A DNA stretch of 59,756 nucleotides from an uncultured bacterium (GCA_903839725.1 CAIMDG010000001.1:173559-233314), one strand, 5' to 3'; numbered from the stretch's first letter, positions 7,526 through 39,078 are shown. A program made the numbers and translations. The notes: a model not told the origin generated them from the sequence alone.

Positions 7526-8443
7526 CTATTTTCCTCTAAATTTGCGATATCTTTGTTCAGCCTGTTTTCCGTACATCATGGTGTAAACCATTGAGCTCTC
7601 AATGCAGGAGTGGCCGAGGATATTTGTGACATCTGAGTTCGATCCTCCTTTTTCTATGATATTTCTACCCATATAGTGTCTCATTGAGTGAGCATTCATA
7701 TTCTTCTCAAGACCTGCTTTATTTGAATATCCTCGCAGCATTTCACAGACGCCACTTTGTTTGAATCTGTATCCTCTGGTTTTGTTTGCTCCAGAGTTAT
7801 GGATTGATATAAATAATGCATTAGGATCACGCAGGACATTTCCACGCTTGAATCGCTCCCGACGTTCTATCCATTTCTGAATCGCCTTGCTTGTTTCTTC
7901 AGTCCAGAAAATTTCTCGTAATGGTCTGCGAGTTTTTGCTTTCTCAGTCTTAATCAATGCTTTGTTGTTTACAAGATCGAGATCATCCATGTCGAGTGCC
8001 ATAATTTCTCCATTTCTCGCACCTGTATCCCAGAGCAATCTGACAATCGCCTCGTTTCTTACATTTCTAGGATCAGTATTTTGAGGGATGACACTGAGCA
8101 ATTTCTTGTACTCCTCTTGAGTCGCAACTCGAGGTATCTTGTATTCCTTCTGAGGAATCGGTATAAGGTTTTCGTTGAGGACCCTCCACCCTCTCAAATT
8201 GCAAAATTCAAAAAACTTTTTATATGCCATACATTTTGAGACGAAGCTATTGTGTGACCATCCGATCTCTTTCATTAAATTCAAATATTCCATCATGTTG
8301 TTTAACGTGATGTCTTCAATCTGTGGGTTACGCAAAAATAGGCAAAAAAGACGAAGGTCTTTGTCATTGCCTCTGGTGGTAGTGCCGTTTATCTTAAACG
8401 TGCGCCAATTTGTAAATTCATCTATAGCATCTTTGAATAGCAT
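7526..8443 (-). CDS. Tyrosine recombinase / phage-type integrase (XerC/D-like)
   Basis: Carries WDTGARNGE (catalytic Arg), HSMRH, LGH and a C-terminal Tyr (VYTMMY). The track ORF starts at a TTG (8479); the ATG at 8443 (MLFKDAIDEF) is preferred. Confidence 0.85.
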   Translation of the reverse strand: MLFKDAIDEFTNWRTFKINGTTTRGNDKDLRLFCLFLRNPQIEDITLNNMMEYLNLMKEIGWSHNSFVSKCMAYKKFFEFCNLRGWRVLNENLIPIPQKEYKIPRVATQEEYKKLLSVIPQNTDPRNVRNEAIVRLLWDTGARNGEIMALDMDDLDLVNNKALIKTEKAKTRRPLREIFWTEETSKAIQKWIERRERFKRGNVLRDPNALFISIHNSGANKTRGYRFKQSGVCEMLRGYSNKAGLEKNMNAHSMRHYMGRNIIEKGGSNSDVTNILGHSCIESSMVYTMMYGKQAEQRYRKFRGK

Positions 8444-8456
8444 ATCAGTCAACCAA

Positions 8457-8489
8457 AAAGTCCACTCGATGCTAGTCAAAGTGGACTTT
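8457..8489. terminator. 10-bp stem-loop flanked by A and T runs at the integrase 5' end
   Basis: Stem aaagtccact / agtggacttt with a 13-nt loop. T runs follow on both strands. Confidence 0.5.
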
Positions 8490-8842: not shown

Positions 8843-9859
8843 TTATGCGGTTTTTTCTCGCATTTGTTTGAGGAAATTCACCACACCTGCATTTTGAGAC
8901 TGCAGAGTGGTCCTGTCACCCACTTTTGCAGGCATTGATACCCTAGGATGACTTCCTAGGAGCTCTCTTATCACAATTTCACGCCCTGTATCCCTTCCTA
9001 TACGATCAAAGAGGCTAATCGCCATCTCAAGAAAGAAGGCGGATAACTCTCGAGCGTTGTCGGTAGGCAGACTTGTCCATTTTTCAATCATACCGAATGG
9101 CAGGATATATGGAAATGCACAACTGTGTCCTTCGACAGTTTGAATTGGCACAAAGCTGTGAGCAACAGGCTCACCGACTACACGTCCGCATCCTGGCATG
9201 AATGGAATAAGGTCTCGATCAGCGATCCATTCAATAAGGTTTTCAAAACAACGTACCACCACGAGTTCGCCTTCAAACACTTGCTCGATGATAGTTTTTG
9301 TTTTGGTATCACAGAATCCAAGAATAACCATTGCAACTTCAACACCTCGATTTTCCAGTTCCTTGAGGATGTAAAGACAAGTATTACCCCTGAACGCACC
9401 TTCCTTTGCCAGAATTACTGGACGACCCGAAATCTTCCTAGCCAACTCATCGAACTGGCGATCCAAATAATCAAATCCGGGACGGGGACCATACCCAAGC
9501 ATTTTTCCATCTGTATCAAACATTCGGTTAATGCTAAGGTTTAGCTTTTCATCACCAGAATTCAAATCGGCCATCTCGGAACAGGTGACTAGAACGGCGT
9601 GCTGGTTGTTTACAGCGGTGTGCCGGTTGACCTGATCCCAGATCTCAAGCCGAAGCTCGTTCTTGTCGACGGGGTGAATCACGACATTCGGAAGCACACG
9701 AGCTACCCTTTCGAGAAGACTCTGGCGCAGTTGCTCAAACATCAGATCTTCGTGGTTTGGGACCATTAGACCTTTTGAGCGAAAAGACTGAATACTACTT
9801 GCTACGTCAAAGGAAACCACACAGGTTCCCCGACTGAGTGCCGAATTGGCAGATTGCAT
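8843..9859 (-). CDS. Hypothetical protein with a divergent phosphoribosyltransferase-like core
   Basis: GRPVILAKEGAFRGNTCLYILKELENRGVEV aligns by eye with the PurF-type PRPP loop (VVLVDDSIVRGTT), but the acidic pair is replaced by KE. Strong AGGAGG Shine-Dalgarno. About 50% GC. Confidence 0.45.
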   Translation of the reverse strand: MQSANSALSRGTCVVSFDVASSIQSFRSKGLMVPNHEDLMFEQLRQSLLERVARVLPNVVIHPVDKNELRLEIWDQVNRHTAVNNQHAVLVTCSEMADLNSGDEKLNLSINRMFDTDGKMLGYGPRPGFDYLDRQFDELARKISGRPVILAKEGAFRGNTCLYILKELENRGVEVAMVILGFCDTKTKTIIEQVFEGELVVVRCFENLIEWIADRDLIPFMPGCGRVVGEPVAHSFVPIQTVEGHSCAFPYILPFGMIEKWTSLPTDNARELSAFFLEMAISLFDRIGRDTGREIVIRELLGSHPRVSMPAKVGDRTTLQSQNAGVVNFLKQMREKTA

Positions 9860-9947
9860 AGGAACCTCCTTTTTTATGGTTGTTTAAGTGACTGTATTGA
9901 AAGAACACACCCTGTCCAGTTTATATGAAATAGTAAAAGAATACTAA

Positions 9948-10271
9948 TTATTTTTGCTCGCCTTTCATTCTATCTATCATCATTTTGTACCCACCACAAC
10001 CCTCTTTCAGCCAACGATTAATTTTTGTAATAGTTACTGGAGACTCACCTGATTCTTCTTGTATTTGAGAAAACGGAACACCCGCATCAAGTTTCTTTGC
10101 AACTTCCCAACGCATAGCAAATTCACGAAGATCTCTTTCACTCATTAGATCCCTGAAAAACGCCTTGAGCTCGTCTTCATTCTTAAGCGACAAAAACACC
10201 TTGAGCAAATCTGGAGATTTCTGTTCAAGCTCCTTCCATATCCCATTTTTTTCTTCATCTGTCATAGGCAT
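9948..10271 (-). CDS. TrpR-like YerC/YecD family protein
   Basis: 107 aa. RDLREFAMRWEVAKKL...SPVTITKINRWLK matches the Trp-repressor-like HTH pattern. Confidence 0.7.
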   Translation of the reverse strand: MPMTDEEKNGIWKELEQKSPDLLKVFLSLKNEDELKAFFRDLMSERDLREFAMRWEVAKKLDAGVPFSQIQEESGESPVTITKINRWLKEGCGGYKMMIDRMKGEQK

Positions 10272-10300
10272 ACTTTAACTAATTATAACACAAATATCTA

Positions 10301-11167
10301 CTACCAACAGAGCTGAGCTGTTTCCCCTATCTTTTGCGATAGATAATTCTGTGCAGCAGTCTCATCTCCGATTTCATCAATCAGCCCGAGTGACTTTGCT
10401 TTATCTCCAAGCATTGATGATCCGTCTGCAATACCGGTTACCTTATCTACTGATAAATTTCTATTTGCCGCAACATCATTTATGAAATTTTGTTGAATCT
10501 TTTTAATATCTCTCAAGATAAGAGCTTTTTCATCAGCGGTCATAACTTTGGCTGGATTTCCTGTGTCTTTATATTTCCCCACTGAAAGTTGAACAAACTT
10601 TTTACTAGGATCAGTATCTTGAACATACGATGCGGTTACACCAATACTTCCAACATCAGAGTTTAATGATGCGAATATTTTTCCCGCACTACTTATAGCC
10701 CAATATGCAGCAGAGGTACCTGACTGTCTGATTACGGCGACACTCGGCTTTGTCGCACTTTTTAAAGCATTGGCTATTTCTTCTCCGGCAACGGGTTGTC
10801 CGCCTGGCGAATCAACTTCAATTAGAATTGCCTTTATTGTATTGTCTTGATCTGCTTTTTGAATTAGAGACACAATATTTTCACTAGCCACAACATCTGT
10901 ATCTACCGTTGGATCTGCATCATTAGGTTTCGGAATGTAGGTATATATCGCACCATGTAGATTTATTCCGAGAACATTACAAGAAGTTTTACTTCCAGTA
11001 TCAGACGTTGAATCAACTACTGACGACATCTCTGGTTTAAATTTATTATATAAAAATAAACTAGCAATGTTTAAGATAAATATTACAATCAAAATCCCTG
11101 TAGTAAAAAATAACTGATGATGCTTTTGAAAGAATTCGCAAGTTTTTTTTCCAGAAAAATATCGCAT
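10301..11167 (-). CDS. sppA: Signal peptide peptidase SppA (S49, 36K type)
   Basis: N-terminal TM segment, then IKAILIEVDSPGGQPVAGEEI and GTSAAYWAISSAGKIFA (Ser nucleophile region). Confidence 0.8.
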   Translation of the reverse strand: MRYFSGKKTCEFFQKHHQLFFTTGILIVIFILNIASLFLYNKFKPEMSSVVDSTSDTGSKTSCNVLGINLHGAIYTYIPKPNDADPTVDTDVVASENIVSLIQKADQDNTIKAILIEVDSPGGQPVAGEEIANALKSATKPSVAVIRQSGTSAAYWAISSAGKIFASLNSDVGSIGVTASYVQDTDPSKKFVQLSVGKYKDTGNPAKVMTADEKALILRDIKKIQQNFINDVAANRNLSVDKVTGIADGSSMLGDKAKSLGLIDEIGDETAAQNYLSQKIGETAQLCW

Positions 11168-11224
11168 TTAATTTATTTTGAGAACAGTATACCACATCAT
11201 TTGAAAAAGATTGACATTCGTACT

Positions 11225-11449
11225 ATGATATTGTTTATGAATAATAGCAATGGATACATGGTCGGGGTTTGGATTGTTGGAGTTCTTTCTTTTGCTGCTA
11301 TCTGGCTTTACGCACTTGTTTCTTGGGGCTTTCTTTTGGGTCTTATGTTCGGATGGATTCCTGCTTTGATTGGAGGCACGATTTTGGGTTTTCTTTGGCC
11401 TTTAGTTGTATTGGCAGTTATTGGTCTGATTATTTTAATATCAAAGTAA
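11225..11449 (+). CDS. Small integral membrane protein (about 75 aa)
   Basis: Internal ATG of track ORF 11117-11449; the upstream part overlaps sppA antisense. Two or three TM helices (VGVWIVGVLSFAAIWLYALV..., LWPLVVLAVIGLIILI). Confidence 0.5.
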   Translation: MILFMNNSNGYMVGVWIVGVLSFAAIWLYALVSWGFLLGLMFGWIPALIGGTILGFLWPLVVLAVIGLIILISK

Positions 11450-11596
11450 GTCAACTAGTTCTACGGCATCCTCCTCGTCCAAACCTTCATCATCCATAAG
11501 CTCTTTTACTTTTTCTGCAGTCTCAATATCAACGCCTTGATTTTCGGCTATTTCTGCAATCTCTATAATTTCTGATGGATCTTTATCTTCAAGCAT
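11441..11596 (-). CDS. 51-aa hyper-acidic protein, last gene of the RM-linked operon
   Basis: Below the track cutoff. Sequence MLEDKDPSEIIEIAEIAENQGVDIETAEKVKELMDDEGLDEEDAVELVDLL has 20 D/E and 3 K. The ATG lies 13 nt after the giant gene's stop. Confidence 0.4.
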   Translation of the reverse strand: MLEDKDPSEIIEIAEIAENQGVDIETAEKVKELMDDEGLDEEDAVELVDLL

Positions 11597-11609
11597 AAAT
11601 GTTTATAAA

Positions 11610-14600
11610 TTAATCGAATCTTAGATCTTGAAGATCGGAATCGATATCTTCCTGTTTTGCGTGATTATCATACCAATCAGCAAGCTCCTTGAGTATCATG
11701 GCTGTGCGAGGCCATTCAATTTTTACCTTATCTGACATATCTTTGTAGTGTTTCGACAGCCCTCTTTCTTGATTGCCCCCATCCCCAATACCACGACACA
11801 CAACACCCCTGTTATTGAAAACTCCGACTCTAATATGTTTATCAATTAATGGGCTATTCAGTTTTTCTATCAAATTCCTAACTGCAACATGGGGCCATGT
11901 GCCATCCATATCGCTTGGTGCATGAGAAAGTAGTTCGGCAATTTTCATGTCACCACCACGAGTATAACCGTTGTCTTTGCATAATCTTCTCACTGACTCA
12001 ACCCATTGAATCAACTCTTTCTCGTCAATTGAGCCATCATCTTTTGAACCAGGTAATGTTTGCCATCGATGAAGAACTTCCCAAGCATTTTTAGCTATAG
12101 TTTCTTTTTGCTTTTGTGATAAATCCTTTTGATTTTCATCAGGGGTGTGATCGTCGTTTTTAAACATAAACGTAATCAGTTGTACAAAAAAGGAAGGGTC
12201 CTTTTCAAGTGAGCGATATATTGCTAAGCGAGATGATGTATATCTTGATATATCTTTTAGAAGCGGACCGAACGGCCACTCCAATCTAGCCATTTCTTCA
12301 ACAGTTAATTCATTACGTTCGTAAATTTGATTAAAAACGTGACCGAGATGATATTCATCCATAACATCTCCAATCTTCTTTTCTTCCTCATTGTCAGTAA
12401 ATACCAAATCCTGAAGTAGCCTTTTTAATAAGGCACTGGGTAATGATATTTTTGGGTCCCCAGCAATTTGAAGTGCAGCAGCCGGACGCTTTACATCGAG
12501 CAATTGTTCTACAGCAACCGCAGCTTCATCAGTCTTTCCATTAAGTGAATACATTCTCACCTTTTTCCAGTACCCCTCGTTAACTGCCTTTGCCTCCAAA
12601 AACAAATCATTCCAAGTATCAGAACCTGTAGGCATTCCCAGATACATCAAAGAAGCTACCTCATCTGTATATAGATTTTCTGATCTCAATCTGGCTATTT
12701 GTGATTTTACCCATTCTTTTCCTTTGATCTCAATTCGTCCCATTGTGTAGCCAATAATTAGGCCTGAATTGTTTGGAAGTTGTCCTATAAATGCATCAAG
12801 AATTTTTTTATCTTCAGCTTCATCTTTTACAACCTTACCGATCGCATTACCAAAAAGTAGAATATACTGATTTGTCTTTGCAAAATCAAAAATTGAATCA
12901 AAATTACAACTATCAAGAACCTCTCTCGCAGCCCTCTCTCGCATTTCAGTAATTTGTACCTCATTATTTTTATAGTCTTTCTGATCCCCATCTGGCAATC
13001 TTGGCCAAGGATTATTCAAAAGCCACCCGTTTTTTTGAATCACATCATTTGGGATATATTTATCAAGAACACGAGCTAATCCATCCCTATATATTTGAAA
13101 TTTCTTCTCAGAATCAAAACTATTTATCCAATTAAGTGCTTCTCGTGTTTCCTTGAGTAAATTTTCTATTTCTTCTTTTGAAAAAACAACAGGGTCCCCT
13201 TTTTCTAAAGCTTCAATTAATTTTTCTCGCATCTCTGGAGACAGTCGAATAAAATGTCCCATTGAAGAAATCTGATTCTTAGTGCGACACGCTAATTCTA
13301 TAAATATTGGGAATATACCCCTTAGATAGTCATTGTATTCCTTGTTGGTTTCCTGTTCTAAGCCAGTTCTTGTACCACCTGTTTCTCTCCATCTAAAGTG
13401 ATGTGATGGAGATATACTTCCCATATCAAAATAACCAAGAGAAATTTTCCACATCGACTCAGGTTCCTTTTTGGATAAAGACTTGAACACTGTTACTCGA
13501 TTTTCAGGCTTTACGTGAGTTTGAGGTAAACCAGGAACAAATACATCCTTGAGTGAATTTCCTGGTCTATTACCCCATCGTCCACCCTTATCGATCTTTG
13601 CTAGGTCTAGCAGTACCCCTGTTGTCTTAGTAAAATAATCCGCACTCCACGACAAACCTTCGAGTGCCCATAGTAAACCACTATGCTTACACTCTCCCCA
13701 TAGCGAATCATCATCGCCCATTAATTCTATAAATACTTCAGGTTTTTCTTTTAGCATTTTCTCGACAGATTCAAGAAATCCAATCGGCGATGCTTCTGAT
13801 AAAAGAGGACTTACATCGCTTAATGACGCCCATACCTCCCAAGTTGTTGCCTGTTCAAAAATATTTCTAACTATTTTATCAGCAAAAAAACAAATTGATG
13901 TTGTGGTCGATGATCTGTCGTCATACACAGATAATAACGCCAATGATTCAACTAGACCTGTTCTGAGCCATTCTGAATATGGATTTGATTTGCCATACAT
14001 ACTTGCAGCCCACCTTTGATCTACCGGTAGATCATATTTGGGATTAGTTTTTGTCAAAACTGCACTAATTGCATCCTCGTATTTTTTTAGTTGGTCATCT
14101 TTTAAATGACGGCCAATTAAAAACCAGACATCCAACGGTGATTTTATCATCCAAACATCTCCGACTTTTCTCAATGGAGAATCATCAATCGACAATAGAC
14201 CAATCAATTTTTTTGAAAAACTTTCATAAGTTTCGCCAGAAAGTACCTCGATGATTTTTTTATCATCATCTTGACGTTCATTCCATGAACCAGCAAACAA
14301 AACGGGAAATAAAATCGAAGCAGTATCAGCTGTTGCCCAAGATGGTGTGCTTACCGCTTTTGATTTGAATAAATGTCTTCTTAATACCGGAATACTCCTT
14401 CCGGAATCTCTAGAAATTCTTTGTGCCTCAGACTCTGACACGCCACTCTTTTTTAGGGCTTTCTCAACAGCATCTCTTTGCGTCCTCGAGAGTTTCATTA
14501 TCCTACCCATATCAATAACCTTCGAATCCATACTCAGGAATACATGATGTCCCTTTGCAACAGCAAATCCTGCTGCTTCAATACAATTACCTGGTGCAGT

Positions 14601-15407
14601 AATAATCAAAGGGTTTTGAAAGGCATCAATACAGGCCCTGAAGTCAGTAAGATTATCTACCACAACACATCTCGATAGAGCCCGAGTTTTCTCTTGATCT
14701 GGTAATAAATCGATTGATCCATACAAGAAAGCAAACGCTTCATCTGGTGCATCTCCTTGTACCTCCAAAATAGACGCCTTTTCATTTATCCATTTCTGAA
14801 TTTTCTCAACGTTGCCAGATCTTCCTCCAACAACCAGATCAGTTGTCATCTGAGGGTTGGTCGATAAGGACCATTCCTCCCAGTAATTTTCTAGACCTCG
14901 AATATCGTGCGACACAGCTTTTCCCATTTGTTTTGCTAGCCATAAAGAAACAGCCGGTGCAGACTCTAGCCACAGTTCAAGTGAATCAGTATTTACAACC
15001 CTTACATCTTTCCATTTTTGCTCTTTCTTTTTTTCTTCAGACCATTTCACCCTCCCTGGCCAGGGACGAGGTGTAACAAACACAAAAGTTGTCTCATCCA
15101 ATTTAACATCGAGAGGGTCGGCTGTTCTTTTAATATAATCAGCTTCTGCCTTACTTTGTGCTGAATTTTCTACACCAATTTCCCATCTTGATTGCCCAGT
15201 AGGAAAAAAAGGAGAAATAGTAGAGGTCTTTAAGCTTCCGTCCCAGCCACTGGTTGCTATACTGTCGCCACTTGGGAAGTGAACATTTTCTGTGGAGGAT
15301 GAGGTTGCAAAAATTAATCTACGGATTAATTCTGGCAGTGTTTGTTGACAATGACGCTGCTTTCCATTTACCCAATTTTTTAAATCGCCACTGTCAATCC
15401 ATTTCAT
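11610..15407 (-). CDS. 1265-aa protein of unknown function, RM-associated
   Basis: Long uninterrupted ORF. The track start at 15455 is a TTG overlapping the REase gene. The ATG at 15407 (MKWIDSGDLKNW) lies 5 nt after the REase stop. I found no Walker A motif. Confidence 0.85.
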   Translation of the reverse strand: MKWIDSGDLKNWVNGKQRHCQQTLPELIRRLIFATSSSTENVHFPSGDSIATSGWDGSLKTSTISPFFPTGQSRWEIGVENSAQSKAEADYIKRTADPLDVKLDETTFVFVTPRPWPGRVKWSEEKKKEQKWKDVRVVNTDSLELWLESAPAVSLWLAKQMGKAVSHDIRGLENYWEEWSLSTNPQMTTDLVVGGRSGNVEKIQKWINEKASILEVQGDAPDEAFAFLYGSIDLLPDQEKTRALSRCVVVDNLTDFRACIDAFQNPLIITAPGNCIEAAGFAVAKGHHVFLSMDSKVIDMGRIMKLSRTQRDAVEKALKKSGVSESEAQRISRDSGRSIPVLRRHLFKSKAVSTPSWATADTASILFPVLFAGSWNERQDDDKKIIEVLSGETYESFSKKLIGLLSIDDSPLRKVGDVWMIKSPLDVWFLIGRHLKDDQLKKYEDAISAVLTKTNPKYDLPVDQRWAASMYGKSNPYSEWLRTGLVESLALLSVYDDRSSTTTSICFFADKIVRNIFEQATTWEVWASLSDVSPLLSEASPIGFLESVEKMLKEKPEVFIELMGDDDSLWGECKHSGLLWALEGLSWSADYFTKTTGVLLDLAKIDKGGRWGNRPGNSLKDVFVPGLPQTHVKPENRVTVFKSLSKKEPESMWKISLGYFDMGSISPSHHFRWRETGGTRTGLEQETNKEYNDYLRGIFPIFIELACRTKNQISSMGHFIRLSPEMREKLIEALEKGDPVVFSKEEIENLLKETREALNWINSFDSEKKFQIYRDGLARVLDKYIPNDVIQKNGWLLNNPWPRLPDGDQKDYKNNEVQITEMRERAAREVLDSCNFDSIFDFAKTNQYILLFGNAIGKVVKDEAEDKKILDAFIGQLPNNSGLIIGYTMGRIEIKGKEWVKSQIARLRSENLYTDEVASLMYLGMPTGSDTWNDLFLEAKAVNEGYWKKVRMYSLNGKTDEAAVAVEQLLDVKRPAAALQIAGDPKISLPSALLKRLLQDLVFTDNEEEKKIGDVMDEYHLGHVFNQIYERNELTVEEMARLEWPFGPLLKDISRYTSSRLAIYRSLEKDPSFFVQLITFMFKNDDHTPDENQKDLSQKQKETIAKNAWEVLHRWQTLPGSKDDGSIDEKELIQWVESVRRLCKDNGYTRGGDMKIAELLSHAPSDMDGTWPHVAVRNLIEKLNSPLIDKHIRVGVFNNRGVVCRGIGDGGNQERGLSKHYKDMSDKVKIEWPRTAMILKELADWYDNHAKQEDIDSDLQDLRFD

Positions 15408-15412
15408 AGTTT

Positions 15413-16201
15413 TTAGTGTCCACGTTCGGTTTGTTTTATTTTTACAATCTCGCAAGGATCAATTTTAAATTGGAGCATAGCCGCTGATGGTCTTCCGTTA
15501 TCTCCACCCTTTCTTTGCATGCCAATTCGACCAATCCTTAGACTACCGTCTCGGGTTATTCTGACTGGACCGTTACCGTAGAAGTTCATGACCATTGCCA
15601 TCGGTAGAAGTGTCCACACGCTTATGTTCTTTTGGTAAAGAAGGAGCCATGATGCTGGGAAGCTGTCTCTGCCCTTGAAGAGATCAGCAACTATGAGTAT
15701 TTTATTTTTCTCAAAAAATTCAATCATCTCGGCCTGCTCTTTCTCACTGAGTTCATCAATAAACATTCTTCGTGGGTCTTTAGGGCTTGGCTTTAAAGGC
15801 ACTGTTTCTCCAGTAAAACATTTTAGATTCTTGGTGATCTGCTCAGGTATACCCCATAACTCGACATATTTATCGACCCATCGCTTATCGATCTGATTGA
15901 AACCTGAGCTGTTGCTTACTAATTTTATTGAAATGTTTTCGATTCCCGTACCTTCTTTAAAGTAAATAGTGATCTCAACCTGAACATCTGTTTTGTGGAA
16001 ACCTGCTATTTTTATAGCTTTCACTTTCTCTATATCATCTAGCTTGTAACCCATTACTAAGAGCCATTTTTGTGCATCCTCATCGGTTTTCCAAGCGTTG
16101 AATTTATCAACAACGTCCTGTTCATTTTTAAATCCGTTTTTAGCAGTAGAAGAACCTCGTTCAATTAATTCTTTTAATTTTAGATCAGTCTCTGATTCCA
16201 T
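15413..16201 (-). CDS. Type II restriction endonuclease, HinP1I/MspI-like
   Basis: TAKNGFKNEQDV...KTDVQVEI...ISIKLVSNSSGFNQIDKRW...QRKGGDNGRPSAAMLQFKIDP matches my recollection of R.HinP1I. Lies immediately downstream of the GCGC-type methylase. Confidence 0.65.
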   Translation of the reverse strand: MESETDLKLKELIERGSSTAKNGFKNEQDVVDKFNAWKTDEDAQKWLLVMGYKLDDIEKVKAIKIAGFHKTDVQVEITIYFKEGTGIENISIKLVSNSSGFNQIDKRWVDKYVELWGIPEQITKNLKCFTGETVPLKPSPKDPRRMFIDELSEKEQAEMIEFFEKNKILIVADLFKGRDSFPASWLLLYQKNISVWTLLPMAMVMNFYGNGPVRITRDGSLRIGRIGMQRKGGDNGRPSAAMLQFKIDPCEIVKIKQTERGH

Positions 16202-16205
16202 ATGT

Positions 16206-17237
16206 TTAAATTTGTGATGTTAGTTTAGGGTGAGCTTTAATAATTTGTTGAAATATCGCTTTCAGCACGGGGACAGAAACACTGTCGCCAAATTGTTTAT
16301 ATGCAAGATTTTTATTTTGAGGTATCTCATAATCCTCTGGGAAACCTTGCATTCGAGCACATTCTCTTGGAGTCAGCTTTCGTACTTTGCCATTGATCAA
16401 ATATGCCCCAGTTTTGCTTGCGGCTCCGCCTCCGTATGCCGATAGCGTAATGCCAGCAGCCTTGGGTGAATAAATCCGTTCTCCTTGCCCTCCGTTGTTA
16501 ATTTGACCAATTTGTAGAGGCCTGCGAGGATCTACAGGGACCGCATCTGGCTTCTTTAAATGTATATCTGGTCTATCAATTATGAAATTCTGAGTATAAT
16601 TCTCATTTTCTAAAATATCCTCGACTGTTTTAACAGTATTCGAGATTGGAGGAAATTCAAAATCCTTGATATGCAAATCTTTTCTAAAAGCAATAATATA
16701 GATTCTTTCTCGAGCTTGTGGCACTCCGTAATCGCTCGATCTTAGAATCTGAGTAAAATAATTGTATCCAATTTTATCGAGAGTATCTTTTACAACCTCT
16801 AGGGTTTTTCCATCATCGTGTTTTGCAAAATTCTTTACATTTTCTAAAAATAAAACATCAGGCTTTACTTTCTTTGCAATTCTTGCGACATCAAAGAAAA
16901 GCGTCCCCCTTGTATCATCAAAACCCTTCATCTTTCCAGAGATACTGAAGGCTTGGCATGGAAATCCTGCACAAAGCACACTATGACTCGGTACTTCTGA
17001 TTCATCTATCTTTGTTATATCCCCATCCGGCATTTCGCCGAAGTTGTTGGCATAAGTTTCTTGTGAATTCTCATCCCATTCTGAGCTGAAGACGCATTCA
17101 CCCCCATGACTTTCTAGGGCGATTCTGAAACCCCCAATGCCAGCAAAAAGATCAATGAACTCAAAGCCTCTTTTGGCTTTTTGCCAACTCTTTTTCTTTT
17201 TTTGTATTTCTACTTTAAATAAAGTGCTTACTGGCAT
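16206..17237 (-). CDS. DNA (cytosine-5) methyltransferase, M.HhaI-like (predicted GCGC)
   Basis: FIDLFAGIGGF (motif I), GFPCQAFSISGK (motif IV), ENVKNF and QARERIYI are present. The TRD segment GQGERIYS...TLSAYGGG...KTGAYLINGKVRKLTPRECARMQGFP closely parallels M.HhaI. Confidence 0.95.
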   Translation of the reverse strand: MPVSTLFKVEIQKKKKSWQKAKRGFEFIDLFAGIGGFRIALESHGGECVFSSEWDENSQETYANNFGEMPDGDITKIDESEVPSHSVLCAGFPCQAFSISGKMKGFDDTRGTLFFDVARIAKKVKPDVLFLENVKNFAKHDDGKTLEVVKDTLDKIGYNYFTQILRSSDYGVPQARERIYIIAFRKDLHIKDFEFPPISNTVKTVEDILENENYTQNFIIDRPDIHLKKPDAVPVDPRRPLQIGQINNGGQGERIYSPKAAGITLSAYGGGAASKTGAYLINGKVRKLTPRECARMQGFPEDYEIPQNKNLAYKQFGDSVSVPVLKAIFQQIIKAHPKLTSQI

Positions 17238-17241
17238 ATTT

Positions 17242-17517
17242 TTATTTGATGATTAAGTTATGCTCTATTAATTTAATAGAAAAATCCCTATTATTTAGTT
17301 TTGTAATTGTTTCTCGGCCGACCATTATTCGGCCAGAGGAGTCAATGCTTTTACCCTCGAGAATCTCTCCTGAAATTTTCACATCAAATTTCTTACCAAG
17401 TAATTTTTTAGCTTCTTTATCATTAGTGATGAAGATATATCCACGATCAGCTTCGCTTTTTGTGAGTCTTCTCACGACGCCATTATTGAGTCTCTTTAAT
17501 CCTTGGTATGCTGCCAT
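17242..17517 (-). CDS. 91-aa protein, possible B3/AbrB-like pseudobarrel DNA binder
   Basis: RRLTKSEADRGYIFITNDKEAKKLLG resembles the B3-domain N-terminal motif (LTxSD...L.IPK). Its stop is 4 nt before the methylase ATG. Confidence 0.35.
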   Translation of the reverse strand: MAAYQGLKRLNNGVVRRLTKSEADRGYIFITNDKEAKKLLGKKFDVKISGEILEGKSIDSSGRIMVGRETITKLNNRDFSIKLIEHNLIIK

Positions 17518-17578
17518 ATTGAATCATTTTACTAGGATTGCGCTAGAATAGCAATATAACAATTCATTCACAGCAAAA

Positions 17579-17587
17579 AATATACCA
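17579..17587 (-). promoter_or_regulatory. Extended -10 element TGGTATATT upstream of the RM operon
   Basis: The reverse complement reads TGGTATATT, about 60 nt upstream of the ATG at 17517. Same type as the promoters at 7324 and 7494. Confidence 0.3.
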
Positions 17588-18139: not shown

Positions 18140-19177
18140 TTATTGTGAGCGCCTACGCATGAGTGCAAGGGCACCAACACCAAGTGCTACGAGGCTGGCT
18201 GATGCCGGCTCTGGCACCGTTGTTGGAGTCAGCAAAAAAGTATCACCATTTGGACCGATCCCTGCGATCTGCCCGTTGTCGTTAATTGCTTGGGCGGCAA
18301 TACTTAGCCCGTCTAACGCACCGCTATTGACGATGTTTAGACCGTAATACTGACCGTCTTGGTAGATACTTCCGTCAGCAATTATCTCGCCGCTATTGTT
18401 GATAGCACTCAAAGTTGACCCGGGGAACAATCTCAGGTTTCCATTATCCCAGAGAAAACTTCCGACATCACATTGGCCGATGATTTGATTGTTATCGTTA
18501 ATAGCAACTGCTTTGCTAAACGATCCCCCGAGACCGAGGTTGATCACGGATCCGTTTTGCCACATCACTGCGGTTATTACCCCTGATCCATAGGATTGGC
18601 CAACAGTGACATTGTTGTTATTGATCCCGAAGGCTCTTGCCATGTTGTCATTAGACAGAGAAGGCAAGATACTGCTAACACCATTCTGCCAGTAGAAGTT
18701 ACCCCTTGTGTTAACAGAGCCCGCACCAACAACAACATTGTTGTTGTTGATTCCGTAGGCAATGCTACCAGTATCCAAGCCTGGGGGGCCTTTAACACCT
18801 AGGTCAGTTGCTGATCCATTCTTCCAAATAAAGGCACGGTTGAAACCGGCCAAACTTGAGGAGTAGTAGGACCCAACAACACTACCAGAGTCATTGACAC
18901 TGAATGCCTTGGTCAAGGTCATACCGTTGTAGGTTCCACCACCAAAGTCACCAAGGACTGTGAACGAGCCGTTGTTCCATATGAGACCTCGGCTTGAGGA
19001 ATCATAAGGTGACATTGAGTATCCGGTAACCATTCCGGAATTGTTAATGTCAGTTATAGTTGTTGTCCAACCGGCATTTGGATTGCCGAGGTCAACCGCC
19101 GTGTAATTGAGCACGCTTGCAGATGCAGACGAGGCTAACGCAAAGATAGCTGCGAGGATAAGAACATACTTTTTCAT
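18140..19177 (-). CDS. HAF-repeat extracellular protein with PEP-CTERM sorting signal
   Basis: Signal peptide MKKYVLILAAIFALASSASA, repeated AxGINNxxxVVG...W.NG units, and a C-terminal VPEPASASLVALGVGALALMRRR. The ATG at 19177 is preferred to the track start at 19234. Confidence 0.75.
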   Translation of the reverse strand: MKKYVLILAAIFALASSASASVLNYTAVDLGNPNAGWTTTITDINNSGMVTGYSMSPYDSSSRGLIWNNGSFTVLGDFGGGTYNGMTLTKAFSVNDSGSVVGSYYSSSLAGFNRAFIWKNGSATDLGVKGPPGLDTGSIAYGINNNNVVVGAGSVNTRGNFYWQNGVSSILPSLSNDNMARAFGINNNNVTVGQSYGSGVITAVMWQNGSVINLGLGGSFSKAVAINDNNQIIGQCDVGSFLWDNGNLRLFPGSTLSAINNSGEIIADGSIYQDGQYYGLNIVNSGALDGLSIAAQAINDNGQIAGIGPNGDTFLLTPTTVPEPASASLVALGVGALALMRRRSQ

Positions 19178-19245
19178 TTTGAACCTTTCTGTAAAGAACT
19201 TTGTTTGTTTTCGTGAATACCACTCAGTATTCAACCAGTATTGAC

Positions 19246-19459: not shown

Positions 19460-20062
19460 TTATAATTGATTAAGTAAGCTGATAATTTGTGACTTGATTC
19501 CATCCTTATTTACAGTCGATGGAAACAATCTCTTGAGTAATTCTGTGCGAACATTTTCAGGTCTTTCCTTATAATCAGCAATGTCTGCGTGAACGAGGAT
19601 GTTTTTCTCATCAAGCACGAATGCTGTGTCGGGATTGTTTGCAAAAGACTTCACAAGTTCTGTAAGAGTCTGGTATTGCCATTCGGTAATATCATTTTCG
19701 TTTGGTTCGACTACTCCATCTTGATCTACGTCATATCCGGCCGCTAGTTCAATACCGATTGTGTATTGATTTGGATTTACATACGAACCATCGAGATTCT
19801 TTAGCATGATTCGCTTAGCACGATCATCCGGATTACTTATATTTCCTGCATGCCATGCAATATCCGTGACCTTCACAAGCTGAATAACTTCGCCTTGATT
19901 ACGACCGATAATGAAATTTGAGGACGATCTGTTTGGTCGGTTAGCATTCATGAGCCAACTCACAGCTCCGTTGTATGCTCCAAGTGTAAAATGAAGGACA
20001 ACAGCCAGCTTCTTTGTGTTGCCTGGTGTGTAATTTGGTGTTTGTTGGAATTGAATATTCAT
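19460..20062 (-). CDS. N-acetylmuramoyl-L-alanine amidase (endolysin, PGRP/Amidase_2-like)
   Basis: VVLHFTLGAYNGAVSWL, AWHAG and YTIGIELA motifs. Sits in the phage lysis position. Confidence 0.8.
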   Translation of the reverse strand: MNIQFQQTPNYTPGNTKKLAVVLHFTLGAYNGAVSWLMNANRPNRSSSNFIIGRNQGEVIQLVKVTDIAWHAGNISNPDDRAKRIMLKNLDGSYVNPNQYTIGIELAAGYDVDQDGVVEPNENDITEWQYQTLTELVKSFANNPDTAFVLDEKNILVHADIADYKERPENVRTELLKRLFPSTVNKDGIKSQIISLLNQL

Positions 20063-35250: not shown

Positions 35251-36963
35251 TTAAATTCCGATGTATGGGTATTGCGGACCTTCTTCCACGAATTCTTCCT
35301 CGTATGCAGGCTTAACTTTGCCGTATGCAGTATTGATCATCGGCTCTGGTCGAATATCACGAGGTCTTTCAGTGCCTGCAGGTCGTGCAATGTCACTTTG
35401 ATATGCAGTTGCATCGCTTGTATCGTCATTTGATGAGTCAGGAAATCTCACAAGTTCGTTTTCTAGGTCTTTACATTCGCTTTTCAGGTGATAGATGCTT
35501 CGTGTTTCGTATCGGTAGAGCAATCCAGTGCGTATACGATCTTCTTTCGAACGTCCTTGATGTTTGAGCCACATCAATGGCAGAAATATCTGACGCATTC
35601 TTTGCTCATGCCGTAGCATTGGTTCAAGTCCTCGAGTGAATGCGGTATCTTCCCATCCAAACTTTACAGGTGGAGTTCCTGCTTGAATGAGGAATGTGTA
35701 AATGCCGAACATCTTTTCAATGATTCCTGTGGGACCGAGTTTTTCTCTCCACGCTTTCAAATGCCATTTACCTTCTCGGTCAGTCCAATTGATACAGATG
35801 CCGACATAGTCTCCGCTTTTACTTACTTCACCATCTTCTTTTCTACTTGGTGTATCAATCGTGACGTAAGCCGCAAGTTTCTTTTGCATCAATGCTTCCC
35901 ATTCAATCGGCATAAACCAGTCACGTTTGAATATTGCTTTTGATTCATCTATTGGCTGACAGAGCATCTCGGATTGAAAATCCATATCACCTTCTTCAGG
36001 AGTCCACATCGAACGTCTTTTTCCTTCAACGCTTACCTTGTTAGTTGCTTTCGCTTCTTCATCGGTCATGACCCATCGCTCTGGCCATGTCGGAGTATGC
36101 AGTCCTGTCATCAGTGTGCCTTGGCAAATCGGGACGACTCTCACTCGAAGTTCTGGATCTTGTTTGGCACGCTCTATAACACTCTGCACATTTCCGAATT
36201 CACTCAAGATGTTACCAAGATAAATTACTCGACGTCGTGCAGAGTCGAGACCTCTTTTAAATTCCTGCATGTGGGACCGAATCTGATTCGTTGATGTCTC
36301 ACTCTTGAGAGTCTTCTTGGTTTCAAAGTCATCAAGCAAAACAAATCCTGGACGCATTGCACCGTGGATACGACCTCGAACACTTTCTTGCGTGCTATGT
36401 GCTTCGACACGAATACCTTCCTTGATAATATTTCCATCGTCATCTCTCAAAGGATTTGTAACGAAGTCTTTTATTCTTTTTTGTGTTACTTCATCCTTGG
36501 TTCGTGCAGTATTATATTTCTCACCAAAGTCTTCAATGAATCTTTTATTTGTTTGAAGTTCCCACACAACATCAAAGAGAATACGTTCTGAGTTTGTGCT
36601 GTCGAACGCATCGGCATTTATGTATGGTTCGATGTCATATGCAATCATGTAAAGAATCAATCCTTTTGCAAAACTTGTCTTTGCGCTTTCACCAAACATA
36701 AACCATGCCACCTCTCTGATTTTTAAATCCAAGAGGTCATGCACGTCTGCCATCATGTCGTAGTGAAAGTCTGCAAACTCACAGCGAACATACCTCTGCA
36801 AATAATATGCAAGGAAATATCCGAAGTGTTCTTTAGCGTGATTCATACGCGCTTCCTTCCGTGATTCCCGAAGAGTCCTGAGACCCTCTGTTGTCACTGG
36901 CGGAAGTATTGTTGTTGGTTCTTGATTTATCATGGCGTTTGAACATTCCTTCATGTTCTTCAA
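35251..36963 (-). CDS. Terminase large subunit candidate
   Basis: 570-aa ORF between the small DNA-binding protein and the portal. Deviant P-loop-like FGESAKTS. The true start may be the ATG at 36846. Confidence 0.65.
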   Translation of the reverse strand: MKNMKECSNAMINQEPTTILPPVTTEGLRTLRESRKEARMNHAKEHFGYFLAYYLQRYVRCEFADFHYDMMADVHDLLDLKIREVAWFMFGESAKTSFAKGLILYMIAYDIEPYINADAFDSTNSERILFDVVWELQTNKRFIEDFGEKYNTARTKDEVTQKRIKDFVTNPLRDDDGNIIKEGIRVEAHSTQESVRGRIHGAMRPGFVLLDDFETKKTLKSETSTNQIRSHMQEFKRGLDSARRRVIYLGNILSEFGNVQSVIERAKQDPELRVRVVPICQGTLMTGLHTPTWPERWVMTDEEAKATNKVSVEGKRRSMWTPEEGDMDFQSEMLCQPIDESKAIFKRDWFMPIEWEALMQKKLAAYVTIDTPSRKEDGEVSKSGDYVGICINWTDREGKWHLKAWREKLGPTGIIEKMFGIYTFLIQAGTPPVKFGWEDTAFTRGLEPMLRHEQRMRQIFLPLMWLKHQGRSKEDRIRTGLLYRYETRSIYHLKSECKDLENELVRFPDSSNDDTSDATAYQSDIARPAGTERPRDIRPEPMINTAYGKVKPAYEEEFVEEGPQYPYIGI

Positions 36964-37372
36964 TTTCTTTTTGAGTAAGTACGACCACTCCTATGCGTTC
37001 AGTTTTGTTAACCTCGAATGATAGAGGTACCTTTCCGTCAACTCGATCAATGATCATTGTTGCCGCTTTCAGGTTGCCGTCGACAGCCATCATCACAATC
37101 TTTTTGACAATAAGTTCGTCAAAATTAACCTTTTGACCATCTTTGGTAACGCCTCCAATCTTACGGATCGCATCCCTGAACATTGTGCTGAAATGTCTGG
37201 TACCAAGAGGCTTTCCCGAGTTACCTGACGAAAACTGCCCTGTGATAGGGTCTCTGCCCGTATTTTCACCGTATTTACGGTCATTTGGAGCCTCTATCGT
37301 AGTATCATTTTTCGTCTTCGGAGCCTCCAAAAGGAGCACTTTTGGCTGATTGTTTTCATTCGGTTGATTCAT
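36833..37372 (-). CDS. Terminase small subunit candidate
   Basis: GNSGKPLGTRHF...LIVKKIVMMAVDGNLKAATMIIDRVDGKVP resembles small terminase/DUF5681-type proteins. The ATG at 37372 (MNQPNENN) is preferred. Confidence 0.45.
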   Translation of the reverse strand: MNQPNENNQPKVLLLEAPKTKNDTTIEAPNDRKYGENTGRDPITGQFSSGNSGKPLGTRHFSTMFRDAIRKIGGVTKDGQKVNFDELIVKKIVMMAVDGNLKAATMIIDRVDGKVPLSFEVNKTERIGVVVLTQKEIEEHEGMFKRHDKSRTNNNTSASDNRGSQDSSGITEGSAYESR

Positions 37373-38684
37373 TCTCGTATAGTGTCTTTTTCCATACTTC
37401 TGGCTGACCATTTCGGACCACAGACTCAATTCCTGTGTAATCGACCCATCGTTGAACAACGACATCCACAAACTTAGGATCAAGCTCTATACCGACACAA
37501 ACTCTGCCAGTTTTTTCGCAGGCTATGAGAGTGCTACCACTTCCAAGGAAAGGGTCAGCGATTAAGTCTTCAGCTTTGGAGCTATTGAAGAGTGCGTACG
37601 TGATGAGTTCGACCGGCTTCTGCGTTGGGTGCAGATACTCATTCACTTTGTCTCTTTTCATTGTCCAAATTGTGAGCTTTCCCTCTGTCTCGAGTTTCTT
37701 TTGTCGCTTTGCCCAATTGAGAATCTTCTGTTCACTGTCATGGAAGTCGAGAATTGTGCTGTGAGTTCTATCTCCATAAAACACCGCTTTTACTCCTTCT
37801 TTTGAAGCGTAGAAAAATGGTTCGTGCTTCCATCGATAGTCACCCCAACCCATCGATGCTGTCGGCTTATTCCATATCAGTTGATTGTGGACCGACATTC
37901 CATTTTTCTTTAGAGCTGATTCAAACTGTGACTGCGTTGAAGTTGAATGAAAGACGTACCAACCTGCACCTGCTTTTGTCATCTCGGCGATACAGCCGAA
38001 AACTCCATCAAGGAACACATCGAATACCTTTTCTTCCATATCATCATTCATGATTCCCTCGCTCGTATTCTTTCCTCTGCCTGAATAATTTACGTTGTAT
38101 GGTGGATCAGTGAATACGCAGTCAGCCTTTCTGCCAAGCATTACCTTTTCCCATGCTTCTTTGTTTGTTGAGTCTCCACAAGTCAAAGTATGCGGACCGA
38201 GCTGATACACGTCGCCGAGTTTACTTTTTGGCTCGACAGGACTTTCTGGGACCACATCATCATTCTCATCATCTTCAAGTATCAAATCTCTTTCAAATCC
38301 TGTAATGGTGATATCAAAACCTGTAGCATCCAAATCTTTGAGTTCATCAACCACCAATCTCATATCTTGCCCAGTAAGTGCATTGAGTTGATTGTCGGCC
38401 AAGCGATACGCTTTTATTTCTTCTTCAGTCAGGTCATCTGCCATGACGTAAGGAATCACCGGTTCGCCTTTCTTCGTATACGCTTTCTGTTCAAGCATTG
38501 TGTATCCTAGTAATTCAGTCATTGCAAGGAATCTTCCATGACCTGCAACAATAACGCCATTCTTATCTATCACAATTGGCTGTTTGCATCCGAATGCCTT
38601 GATACTATTTGCGATCTTCTCAAGATGCCATGTCGGATGTTCCTTGGCATTCTTATCGTATGGTTTTATTTCTGTGATTTGCAT
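37356..38684 (-). CDS. ParB-like nuclease domain fused to an N6/N4 DNA methyltransferase
   Basis: ParB-N motif (IVIDKNGVIVAGHGR), then DPPYNVNY (motif IV) and the C-terminal AdoMet motif DPFLGSGSTLIA. The ATG at 38684 lies 4 nt after the upstream stop. Confidence 0.85.
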   Translation of the reverse strand: MQITEIKPYDKNAKEHPTWHLEKIANSIKAFGCKQPIVIDKNGVIVAGHGRFLAMTELLGYTMLEQKAYTKKGEPVIPYVMADDLTEEEIKAYRLADNQLNALTGQDMRLVVDELKDLDATGFDITITGFERDLILEDDENDDVVPESPVEPKSKLGDVYQLGPHTLTCGDSTNKEAWEKVMLGRKADCVFTDPPYNVNYSGRGKNTSEGIMNDDMEEKVFDVFLDGVFGCIAEMTKAGAGWYVFHSTSTQSQFESALKKNGMSVHNQLIWNKPTASMGWGDYRWKHEPFFYASKEGVKAVFYGDRTHSTILDFHDSEQKILNWAKRQKKLETEGKLTIWTMKRDKVNEYLHPTQKPVELITYALFNSSKAEDLIADPFLGSGSTLIACEKTGRVCVGIELDPKFVDVVVQRWVDYTGIESVVRNGQPEVWKKTLYENESTE

Positions 38685-38688
38685 ATAT

Positions 38689-39078
38689 TTATTTTTCCAT
38701 CCATCCGACCATGCTCGATTCATTGCAGGCACCGACCTTGCCGTTATCTCCCATGTATTCATATGCAGGCTTACCGCTTTCTTGCGGAAGTATCCCAATC
38801 ACCAATCTCTCATCGCCTTTCTTGTTTCTGCATATTGTGCCGAACGTATATGCCAGTCTTTGGTCTGGATTCTTCTTTTCAAAGTGATTCCTCAAAGCGG
38901 CAAAGAATTCTCCTTGGACCGTCTCAAGATATACAATGATCGCTTCCTGATGTTCTGTTTTGAAAATCGGAAGTAGTCCATGAGCTCCAATGATCCACGC
39001 ACTCACGAAGTCAGGACGGGCGGCGAGGAATCGTGCAGATAGGCTCAGTGGATTTCTTTCTTTAATTTCTTTAGTCAT
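38689..39078 (-). CDS. Phage hypothetical protein
   Basis: 129-aa ORF, tightly packed between neighbours. Confidence 0.55.
   Translation of the reverse strand: MTKEIKERNPLSLSARFLAARPDFVSAWIIGAHGLLPIFKTEHQEAIIVYLETVQGEFFAALRNHFEKKNPDQRLAYTFGTICRNKKGDERLVIGILPQESGKPAYEYMGDNGKVGACNESSMVGWMEK

Follow-up and report, generated by a model that had tools for sequence, protein, structure and literature searches.

The defence system PD-lambda-4 has been renamed Avs8 in the literature, and Avs8A was reported to bind the HK97-fold major capsid protein and to respond with DNase activity (bioRxiv 10.1101/2025.07.02.662641). Avs3 and Avs4 bind ATP through canonical Walker motifs (PMC13601566). KpAvs8 responds to its phage target despite degenerate Walker motifs (PMC13581612) and so sets a precedent in the Avs8 family for degeneracy of the nucleotide site. 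Here we analysed a stretch of 59,756 nt from an uncultured bacterium (GCA_903839725.1 CAIMDG010000001.1:173559-233314; hereafter the window, meaning the whole stretch), in which five closely spaced open reading frames (ORFs) on the minus strand encode a 91-aa protein (p91), a methyltransferase (M) and an endonuclease (R) of a restriction-modification (RM) pair, a 1265-aa protein that we call the giant, and a 51-aa protein (p51).

An earlier note on this DNA had suggested that the giant and the small proteins beside it may make up a defence layer coupled to the RM pair, or a new multi-component system. We found instead that p91-M-R, p51 and the giant each occur separately, and that the five-gene operon is composed of three independent modules: an RM cassette, a small backbone gene and the giant. 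The explanation that we favour, with a probability of about 0.6, is that the locus is an interchangeable-cargo slot holding two independent defence modules, the RM cassette and a single-gene NLR-like sensor, and that p51 belongs to the backbone. Neither the RM pair nor the apparent operon is unusual; it is the giant family, large and unannotated, that is informative about mechanism.

Architecture and remote homology of the giant

The giant gene lies at 15407-11610 on the minus strand and encodes 1265 aa when counted from its ATG; an alternative TTG start at 15455 would give 1281 aa. The earlier note had called the giant a protein of unknown function, and profile searches placed it in no curated family. 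Searches of Pfam, NCBIfam and PADLOC gave no match at E <= 0.1, the curated Avs/AVAST and STAND models (PADLOC; Pfam NACHT, NB-ARC and AAA_16) included, and sequence and profile searches of the PDB returned nothing. Its sole family match was to PHROG 18693, over the full length (1.4e-168), a family with no assigned function. The protein was modelled by AlphaFold2 (AF2) in two pieces, residues 1-440 (pLDDT 93, pTM 0.91) and residues 401-1265 (pLDDT 88, all-helical). The expectation that everything beyond the first ~170 residues would be helical held for residues ~440-1265; residues ~170-440 are an alpha/beta NOD-like module. At the level of fold, as judged with AF2, DSSP and Foldseek, all three parts of the Avs/NLR plan were found, that is, an effector, an NBD-HD-WHD unit and a repeat sensor.

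Residues 1-165 (14913-15407, minus strand) form a putative effector of the PD-(D/E)xK, Mrr-like type, with conserved E26, D56, E76, K86 and R94. The AF2 model of this domain has the order alpha-beta-beta-beta-alpha-beta (helix 17-35, strands 41-43, 57-61 and 71-77, helix 83-96, strand 106-111), with D56 and E76 in the places expected for PD-(D/E)xK and with Gly or Ser at position +2. A loose D...E...K pattern had been pointed out in the first ~170 aa; D56, E76 and K86 are in fact found in all 243 aligned members of the family, alignment gaps in one or two close relatives being the only exceptions. In a viral structure library, weak Foldseek matches to phage endonucleases appeared at ranks 33 and 50.

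The following residues, ~166-440 (14088-14912, minus strand), were assigned to a STAND-type NOD with an NBD-like domain, a helical domain and a winged helix. In the model, a Rossmann-like alpha/beta fold (~190-300) is followed by a helical bundle (310-350) and the winged helix (360-425). When residues 1-440 were compared with the PDB by Foldseek, Avs4 (8dgf, 4e-7) and then Avs3 (8dgc, 9e-7) came out on top, both at probability 1.0 and with alignments spanning the whole query. Lower matches were to ORC, an archaeal AAA+ protein, CED-4, Apaf-1/Dark, a plant TIR-NLR and RFC, and the viral structure library yielded NLR-, STAND- and RFC-like proteins.

The Walker A motif expected in the NBD of an Avs protein is missing from the giant. 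The earlier note had seen none, and GxxxxGK[ST] is indeed absent, as it is from all members of the alignment (0/243) and from 149 diverse representatives. The site reads Q-G-D-A-P-D-E-A, in which GDAPDE are residues 218-223, and the model places a strand (213-217, ILEVQ), a three-residue loop and a helix (221-233) there. E223 is present in 241/243 members, and R94, R196, H287 and R344 in all aligned members. The Walker B acid (D/E) after CVVV was found in 105/120 close relatives and in 48/123 distant ones.

The remainder of the protein, residues ~441-1265 (11610-14087 including the stop codon, minus strand), is an all-alpha solenoid and putative sensor. Foldseek matched residues 401-1265 to importin-beta, CAND1, transportin and other HEAT-type solenoids. 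The solenoid has a conserved motif in common with Avs8A, ...LAWSxEYFxR...NRPxNSLxDIFxPGxPQTHAxPEER....

The relationship to Avs8A was examined by comparing alignments. The E. coli Avs8AB locus was recovered via the 5' sequence of the published construct, and E. coli Avs8A was aligned with six diverse plasmid homologues (seven sequences). With hhalign, the giant family alignment matched the Avs8A alignment at a probability of 96.9% and an E of 1.9e-10; the match is collinear (4-1265 against 6-1283), at an identity of about 18%, and a column-reversed control gave an E of 0.3. Comparison of the single sequence with Avs8A was also collinear (E 3e-6), and the N-terminal nuclease domains alone gave an E of 6.4e-5, the Q of the Avs8A FQxKK motif being aligned with E76. 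The Avs8A Walker A sequence GLSGVGKT was aligned with GDAPDE of the giant. Against the PADLOC model PD-Lambda-4_A, the giant itself gave no match and a family member from Shewanella baltica gave a weak, collinear one (9.5e-5, 18 bits). Together, these alignments indicate that the giant is a remote homologue of Avs8A, at the level of a superfamily and not of membership by the Avs8 family's own model. They also indicate that it keeps the Avs8A architecture, with the nucleotide site lost and the catalytic lysine moved.

The giant is very probably a defence protein, and its most likely function, on our analysis, is that of a single-gene NLR-like abortive-infection (Abi) nuclease. Judged by homology and architecture, it would most likely work as a single-protein pattern-recognition receptor. 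By analogy with Avs3, Avs4 and Avs8, the solenoid would bind a conserved phage protein, and this binding would free the NOD to oligomerise. Oligomerisation would gather the nuclease domains, and the clustered nucleases would degrade DNA so that infection is aborted. Since the Gly-Lys-Ser/Thr of Walker A is lost across the family and replaced by acidic residues, assembly would presumably be independent of nucleotide binding and hydrolysis. This leads to a tentative proposal, to which we give considerably less weight, that the family is a very large clade of NLR-like receptors without nucleotide binding, in which E223 together with R196, H287 and R344 may act as a pseudo-ligand in the former ATP site, gating may be by the sensor only, and the catalytic lysine may have been relocated. 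The clade of the giant family spans candidate-phyla-radiation bacteria to Proteobacteria. If the proposal is true, it would represent family-wide ATP-independent STAND signalling and a natural test of the role of the nucleotide switch in NLRs.

Three independent modules and a recombination junction

All five minus-strand ORFs were found where the earlier note had placed them: p91 at 17517-17242 (basic, pI about 10), M at 17237-16206 (343 aa), R at 16201-15413 (262 aa), the giant, and p51 at 11596-11441. The gaps between them, which had been described as 4-13 nt, measure 4, 4, 5 and 13 nt. An extended -10-like element, TGGTATATT, reads as described at 17587-17579 on the minus strand, upstream of the p91 ORF. 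Promoter-like consensus matches in the region were not above the shuffled expectation (12 versus 18.7 expected), and TGGTATATT is a candidate promoter for the RM cassette and, via read-through, for the giant. No minus-strand terminator-like site was found at the gene junctions, the sole such site being a weak 5-bp stem within the giant gene.

M is a C5-cytosine DNA methyltransferase (PF00145, 2.9e-97) that matches M.HhaI (10mh, 6e-119) over residues 20-330 of 343, and the claim that the likeness extends through the target-recognition region therefore stands. R belongs to the R.HinP1I family of type II endonucleases, again as had been proposed (PF11463, 2.5e-71; R.HinP1I, 1ynm, 6.8e-75). The identity of the GCGC RM pair is certain at the level of homology, and the GCGC / G^CGC specificity and the activity of M and R are presumably those of their homologues. 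As in other type II RM systems, the cognate M and R are adjacent, and four sister elements (L039-L042) carry the cassette as a stand-alone unit. In those four and in a fifth element (L047), p91 precedes the same M and R genes at the same 4-nt spacing; p91 always travels with the GCGC RM pair. Only six homologues of p91 were found, and searches of Pfam, NCBIfam, PADLOC, PHROG and PDB gave no match. At a guess it may be a controller or regulator; no profile identified it as an HTH_3 C-protein, and an AbrB/SpoVT fold, which was considered from a likeness by eye, is unsupported and not claimed.

With respect to GCGC itself, the window has 60 sites, about 1 per kb, with an observed/expected ratio of 0.74 (a mild depletion). 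GCGC sites are absent across 7.8 kb (9725-17540) that hold the S49 peptidase gene, p51, the giant, R, M and p91; this stretch has a lower GC content, so the significance is modest.

The three modules can be told apart from the places in which each occurs. In L039-L042 the order is Amidase_2, NUDIX, p91, M, R (255 aa) and then a convergent unrelated gene, with neither the giant nor p51, and the cassette closes there with a stop codon and a GC hairpin of its own. In L047 the place of the giant behind the same p91-M-R block (R of 262 aa) is taken by a protein of 969 aa. It has a match to the PADLOC Ppl model (2.7e-27) and no relation to the giant. Conversely, an alignment-seeded scan of one genome per species yielded 23 loci with the giant in at least ten lineages, including Omnitrophota, Elusimicrobia, Margulisiibacteriota, several candidate-phyla-radiation groups, Gammaproteobacteria, Aminicenantes, Bdellovibrionales and Terriglobia; a scan of genome contigs with the single giant protein had given no match. 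A tblastn search found p91, M, R and p51 all missing from these 23 loci, and all-against-all clustering of the flanking ORFs revealed no recurrent neighbour. The giant is found without any of the other four genes in the 23 genome loci and also in L027-L032, L043-L046 and L058, more than 30 loci in all.

The third module, p51, is found without the giant in six loci (L033-L038), and the nearest homologue of the giant (93%, L026) has no p51. In L033-L035 it stands opposite a type I RM system and an OLD-like gene. In L036-L038 a run of ResIII, methylase, NOV_C, DUF3644, PDDEXK and T5orf172 genes precedes it, and in two of these loci, L036 and L037, an integrase follows 2 kb further on. The protein is acidic (20 D/E, 3 K/R, pI about 4) and has 40 homologues at 68-100% identity. 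Comparison with its counterparts in L024 and L025 gave at least as many synonymous as non-synonymous changes (16/14, 18/14 and 19/7), which, together with the 40 homologues, identifies p51 as a real gene. Judged from these comparisons, p51 belongs to the backbone as a conserved, lineage-specific gene bordering the cargo slot, and it is not a partner of the giant. Its role may be that of a boundary or backbone gene; DNA mimicry and regulation are other candidates.

Further observations on p51 were made. Its sequence has two helix-Gly-x-Asp-helix-like repeats. It recurs beside defence cargo (window 11441-11596; L033:7001-7156; L036:7001-7177), about 2-3.4 kb from a tyrosine integrase in the window and in L024, L025 and L036-L038. 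It was also considered as a counterpart of the 51-aa ORF after E. coli Avs8B; the sequences are unrelated and the equal length is coincidental.

How the giant came to lie directly behind R was revealed by its nearest relatives, L026 (93%), L024 (88%) and L025 (86%). The homology of L024, L025 and L026 to the window ends at 15418, 15413 and 15413, respectively, 6-11 nt upstream of the giant ATG, and each has another cassette there. This cassette consists of two N6 methylases and a 961-aa ResIII-type restriction subunit in L024, contains the same ResIII-type helicase in L025, and in L026 is represented by two ORFs of 360 and 338 aa (L026:245-2348) with no Pfam, PADLOC or PDB match. From the other side, the window matches the RM cassette of L039 at 84% identity from 18066 down to 15430. 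The R gene of L039 (255 aa) ends in ...CEIVKI-TAA followed by a GGGGG...CCCCC hairpin. The window departs from it after GAGATTGTAAAAAT, and R reads through seven more codons (KQTERGH) to a TAA that sits 5 nt before the giant ATG. The recombination junction between the RM cassette and the giant module is thereby mapped to 15418-15430, from the homology ends of L039 and of L024-L026. On this comparison, the close spacing of R and the giant is a lineage-specific recombination junction that removed the RM terminator. Loss of that terminator makes read-through from the RM promoter into the giant plausible, and in this genome the giant is probably transcribed from it. Such co-transcription of R and the giant would not be ancestral; the arrangement is an accident of this lineage rather than a conserved design.

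As a separate observation, the 360- and 338-aa ORFs of L026 overlap the start of the giant and are, by position, a candidate undescribed defence or RM module.

The junction also bears on the proposal that the giant is a guard of RM, monitoring it and triggering Abi upon its inhibition by a phage, or that the RM pair, the small proteins and the giant are components of one system. PrrC, which guards EcoprrI, is the model for such an arrangement. The giant does begin 5 nt past the R gene with no terminator between them. In L024 and L025 it likewise begins 5 nt past a ResIII-type subunit, and in L026 the upstream gene overlaps its ATG, so that it is always coupled to an upstream gene in this lineage; RM genes also lie within 8 kb in several distant loci. 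However, the RM types vary (type II GCGC, ResIII-type with two N6 methylases, type I, Eco57I/XamI), as do their distance and strand, and RM is absent in L029-L031 and L027. In addition, p91-M-R is a terminated stand-alone cassette behind which a Ppl-like gene takes the place of the giant in L047, the four proposed partner proteins are absent from the 23 giant loci, p51 is independent, and Avs8A, the closest known relative, is reported to sense a phage capsid protein directly. On these gene-context data we rejected a PrrC-like RM guard, and we consider an RM-coupled or multi-component role highly improbable.

Cargo slot, family distribution and competing explanations

The proposal that the locus is defence cargo in a mobile element adjoining a prophage was supported. 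A large terminase (35251-36963; phrog_38, 2.5e-39), phage methylases, a Sak4-like protein, an Amidase_2 lysin and an integrase were found. The Amidase_2 lysin (19460-20062, minus strand; PF01510, 1.5e-17) is the start of a conserved prophage block and is syntenic in L024, L039 and L047; a LysM protein also lies on the Amidase_2/terminase side of the cargo region. The tyrosine integrase (7526-8479, minus strand; PF00589, 2.1e-26) lies on the far side, and its position relative to p51 is the same in L024, L025 and L036. L024 and L025 keep the downstream backbone (p51, a Trp-repressor-like gene and the integrase), and L024 additionally keeps the S49 peptidase and the upstream Amidase_2 block. The comparison thus points to a prophage cargo slot between the lysis module and the integrase in which cassettes are exchanged. 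Across the sister elements the slot contains type II RM, ResIII-type RM, the Ppl-like gene, the giant, type I RM with an OLD-like gene, or NOV_C/DUF3644/PDDEXK genes.

The five-gene run had been said to end at a convergent gene. A plus-strand ORF does exist there (11117-11449); no such ORF is found in relatives, and in L024 the gene next after p51 is the co-directional S49 peptidase. This ORF is putative, encodes 110 aa with hydrophobic membrane-like segments, and overlaps the 3' end of p51 by 9 nt as well as the start of the S49 peptidase gene. It lies within a stretch of ~600 nt (10852-11466) that did not align to L024 by blastn.

Elsewhere in the element, the NUDIX gene and the Amidase_2 lysin are separated by the gene of a 364-aa PEP-CTERM / DUF3466-like secreted protein (18140-19234, minus strand). 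The sister elements L039, L047 and L024 lack it, which marks it as additional variable cargo. The prophage also encodes two phage-type DNA methyltransferases, at 37356-38798 (minus strand; phrog_498, 1e-131, a ParB-methylase fusion) and 39497-40636 (minus strand; phrog_116, 3e-102), which may possibly serve self-protection from host or competing RM systems.

The family of the giant is large. A profile search with the N-terminal 440 residues gave 4,225 clusters (50% identity) at E <= 1e-3, 2,320 of them at E <= 1e-30. Lengths are uniform, about 1255-1280 aa, apart from a subset of about 1330-1430 aa with an N-terminal XRE-type helix-turn-helix (HTH), and HTH domains were the only recurrent Pfam matches across 37 members. 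No mention of the accessions and PHROG ids of family members was found in the searchable literature. Among close relatives pN/pS is about 0.06-0.07, which shows strong purifying selection. At the same time, the gene has decayed to a pseudogene in 3/23 genome loci, and in one it is broken by an insertion sequence (IS) element.

Several degraded forms were observed. Decayed copies are found at L021:10001-14417 and in L016, L022 and L023, three of them with many stops or frameshifts; in the IS-interrupted copy, the break falls after residue 644 and holds a two-gene IS-like insertion (518 and 250 aa). Truncated members (L049:4908-7676, from Buttiauxella pBTX_57, and NC_017580.1 13376-16036) match by tblastn from near residue 357-359 onwards, with no nuclease and little of the NOD; the Buttiauxella gene has a 106-aa ORF before it and a group II intron near it. 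These members may be sensor-only variants or remnants.

We sampled about 35 loci for the genes around homologues. The expectation that homologues would recurrently neighbour RM or other defence genes was borne out, with RM, Abi, toxin-antitoxin (TA), CBASS or TIR genes and recombinases present in most annotated contexts. Examples include ThsB_TIR with an AAA_15/SMC-like ATPase (L027), an integrase with type I RM (L032) and a serine recombinase with type I RM (L043). A Thalassospira plasmid carries Abi, SIR2, two RES-Xre pairs and AbiEii near the homologue, and a Rhizobium gallicum plasmid carries AbiEii/AbiEi, the family member, an Avs8-like gene and two restriction endonucleases. At one locus the gene immediately upstream is a separate HTH_3 gene, and Eco57I/XamI RM, DndB and a recombinase are close by. 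The 145 neighbours at the 23 genome loci include four N6/N4 methylases, a CBASS cyclase with a 4TM effector, PD-T4-3, resolvases and ordinary housekeeping genes. In the lineage of the window, moreover, a sister element has a known single-gene defence, the Ppl-like gene, in the same slot. From these contexts, the pattern is that of a horizontally mobile stand-alone defence gene and not of an accessory of a particular RM system.

On Rhizobium plasmids, a giant-family gene was seen directly before a same-strand, distant Avs8-like gene, a tandem NLR-like pair (L058:1880-9840, from Rhizobium gallicum pRgalIE4872c; NZ_CP022669.1 297710-304594; NZ_CP006879.1 39232-43769). These Avs8-like genes are 20-22% identical to EcAvs8A and are flanked by AbiE and restriction genes.

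The same distribution would suit a protein that serves the mobile element itself, by superinfection exclusion, addiction, or DNA processing in prophage or plasmid maintenance. It is carried in a prophage cargo slot, it has the full-length PHROG 18693 match, 12/25 plasmids with a matching member are conjugative, and serine recombinases, integrases and TA modules adjoin homologues. Yet no recombinase, replication or partition gene is a fixed partner, and many copies are chromosomal and outside recognisable elements. This explanation, which we consider very unlikely as a separate one, also overlaps largely with the cargo slot holding two defence modules, because prophage-borne defence amounts to superinfection immunity.

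Several points weigh against the giant as an NLR-like defence nuclease. In the putative nuclease, G78 occupies the position of the canonical (D/E)xK lysine, and the sole invariant lysine, K86, is 10 residues past E76 in the next helix; because the catalytic lysine is not in the canonical position, nuclease activity is uncertain. No nuclease or STAND hidden Markov model of Pfam, NCBIfam or PADLOC matched the giant. The Foldseek TM-scores were low, 0.23-0.31, and the NOD alone did not match the Avs8 NOD significantly (hhalign E 0.08), so that the NOD is called from Foldseek probability, E-value and the order of secondary structure. A defence function is argued from homology and gene context. The giant begins <=5 nt behind the upstream gene in four close relatives, which leaves a small probability of a functional link to that gene. 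In L029-L031, where the giant gene has been cleanly inserted between priA and the shikimate operon, the flanks are housekeeping genes, with no defence gene within 8 kb. Finally, an N-terminal HTH was found in 14/37 scanned top representatives, a sample enriched for long members, and PGAP labels HTH-bearing members 'transcriptional regulator', which keeps some weight on a regulatory role of the family.

These last points, together with the loss of Walker A and of the canonical ExK lysine, are those expected if the giant is a STAND-type transcription regulator (MalT/AfsR-like) or a non-immune scaffold whose nuclease-like domain is non-catalytic and binds DNA or a ligand. The HTH in question is HTH_3, one locus has it as a separate gene directly upstream, PGAP names include 'helix-turn-helix transcriptional regulator', and some loci are flanked by housekeeping genes only. 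However, an HTH is missing from the giant of the window and from most of its close relatives. XRE-type HTH domains are common as autoregulators of defence genes, in fused form or beside them, and the HTH of the Thalassospira member matched the PADLOC 'Control_protein' and capH models. Furthermore, D56, E76 and K86 are conserved family-wide, no conserved regulated neighbour or operon was found, and the family is patchy across phyla, includes pseudogenes, is carried on plasmids and prophages, and is homologous to a proven immune nuclease family. We therefore regard a regulator or scaffold as unlikely, and retain the single-gene NLR-like sensor as the better account of the giant.

Comparison with described systems

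The findings have consequences for annotation and for mechanism. Tight spacing in a prophage cargo slot does not equal an operon-level system, and the junction that created the spacing is visible here at base resolution. A fold, a homology link to Avs8A and a testable mechanism are now provided for a family without a Pfam, NCBIfam or PADLOC model, and its inclusion in defence-finder models would alter the annotation of many genomes. Cultured hosts include Shewanella baltica OS195, Cupriavidus metallidurans CH34, Rhizobium and Ralstonia, in which PGAP names the members 'HTH transcriptional regulator', 'HigA antitoxin' or 'hypothetical'. With the P-loop lost throughout the family and the NOD otherwise intact, these proteins offer a natural system for asking whether NLR-like sensors need nucleotide to assemble. 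Compared with known Avs proteins, what differs is this loss together with an invariant Glu, a non-canonical D-E...K triad and an optional N-terminal HTH.

Avs8A (E. coli ECOR07 WP_000963924.1) is the closest described protein. Its length of 1264-1283 aa is similar to the 1265 aa of the giant, and the order of domains is the same, an N-terminal nuclease of the Mrr/PD-(D/E)xK type, a NOD and a long alpha-helical repeat sensor. Both have the motifs LPELxxRL, (A/H)P(A/S)VxLW and LAWSxEYFxR...THAxxEER, and both occur on mobile elements and in defence islands. They differ at the nucleotide site, where 7/7 Avs8A homologues have G(L/V)(S/A)GVGK(T/S) near residue 241, whereas the giant family has a Walker A motif in 0/243 members and carries the acidic D/E-E223 there, and the Walker B acid is not conserved in the wider giant family. 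The nuclease motif is PD...QxK in Avs8 and D56...E76-x-G78 with the invariant K86 in the giant. In addition, EcAvs8A is followed by a 248-aa Avs8B gene, whereas no conserved gene lies downstream of the giant, similarity between Avs8B and the neighbours of the giant not having been searched for directly.

Avs3 (SeAvs3, 8dgc) and Avs4 (EcAvs4, 8dgf), which sense terminase and portal, respectively, are the best PDB structural matches to residues 1-440, and the common logic is a nuclease effector at the N-terminus, then a NOD, then a helical repeat sensor at the C-terminus. They show no likeness to the giant at the level of sequence (the PDB profile search was empty and there was no PADLOC match), and their sensors are described as TPR-like, whereas the best matches of the giant are HEAT/importin-like solenoids. 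Upx, a large sensor with a PD-(D/E)xK nuclease, was also considered and set aside; its nuclease is C-terminal, it has no NOD according to the literature, and no Upx was among the Foldseek matches.

For the rest of the locus, the nearest systems are the HhaI/HinP1I (GCGC) type II RM systems, of which M and R are close full-length homologues. Here, in contrast, a lineage-specific p91 ORF always stands before the methylase, and the R gene of the window is without its terminator and has seven added codons at the junction. The slot as a whole may be likened to the defence hotspots of P2/P4-type prophages and satellites: the flanks are fixed, with the lysis module on one side and p51 and the integrase on the other, and the defence cargo between them is interchangeable.

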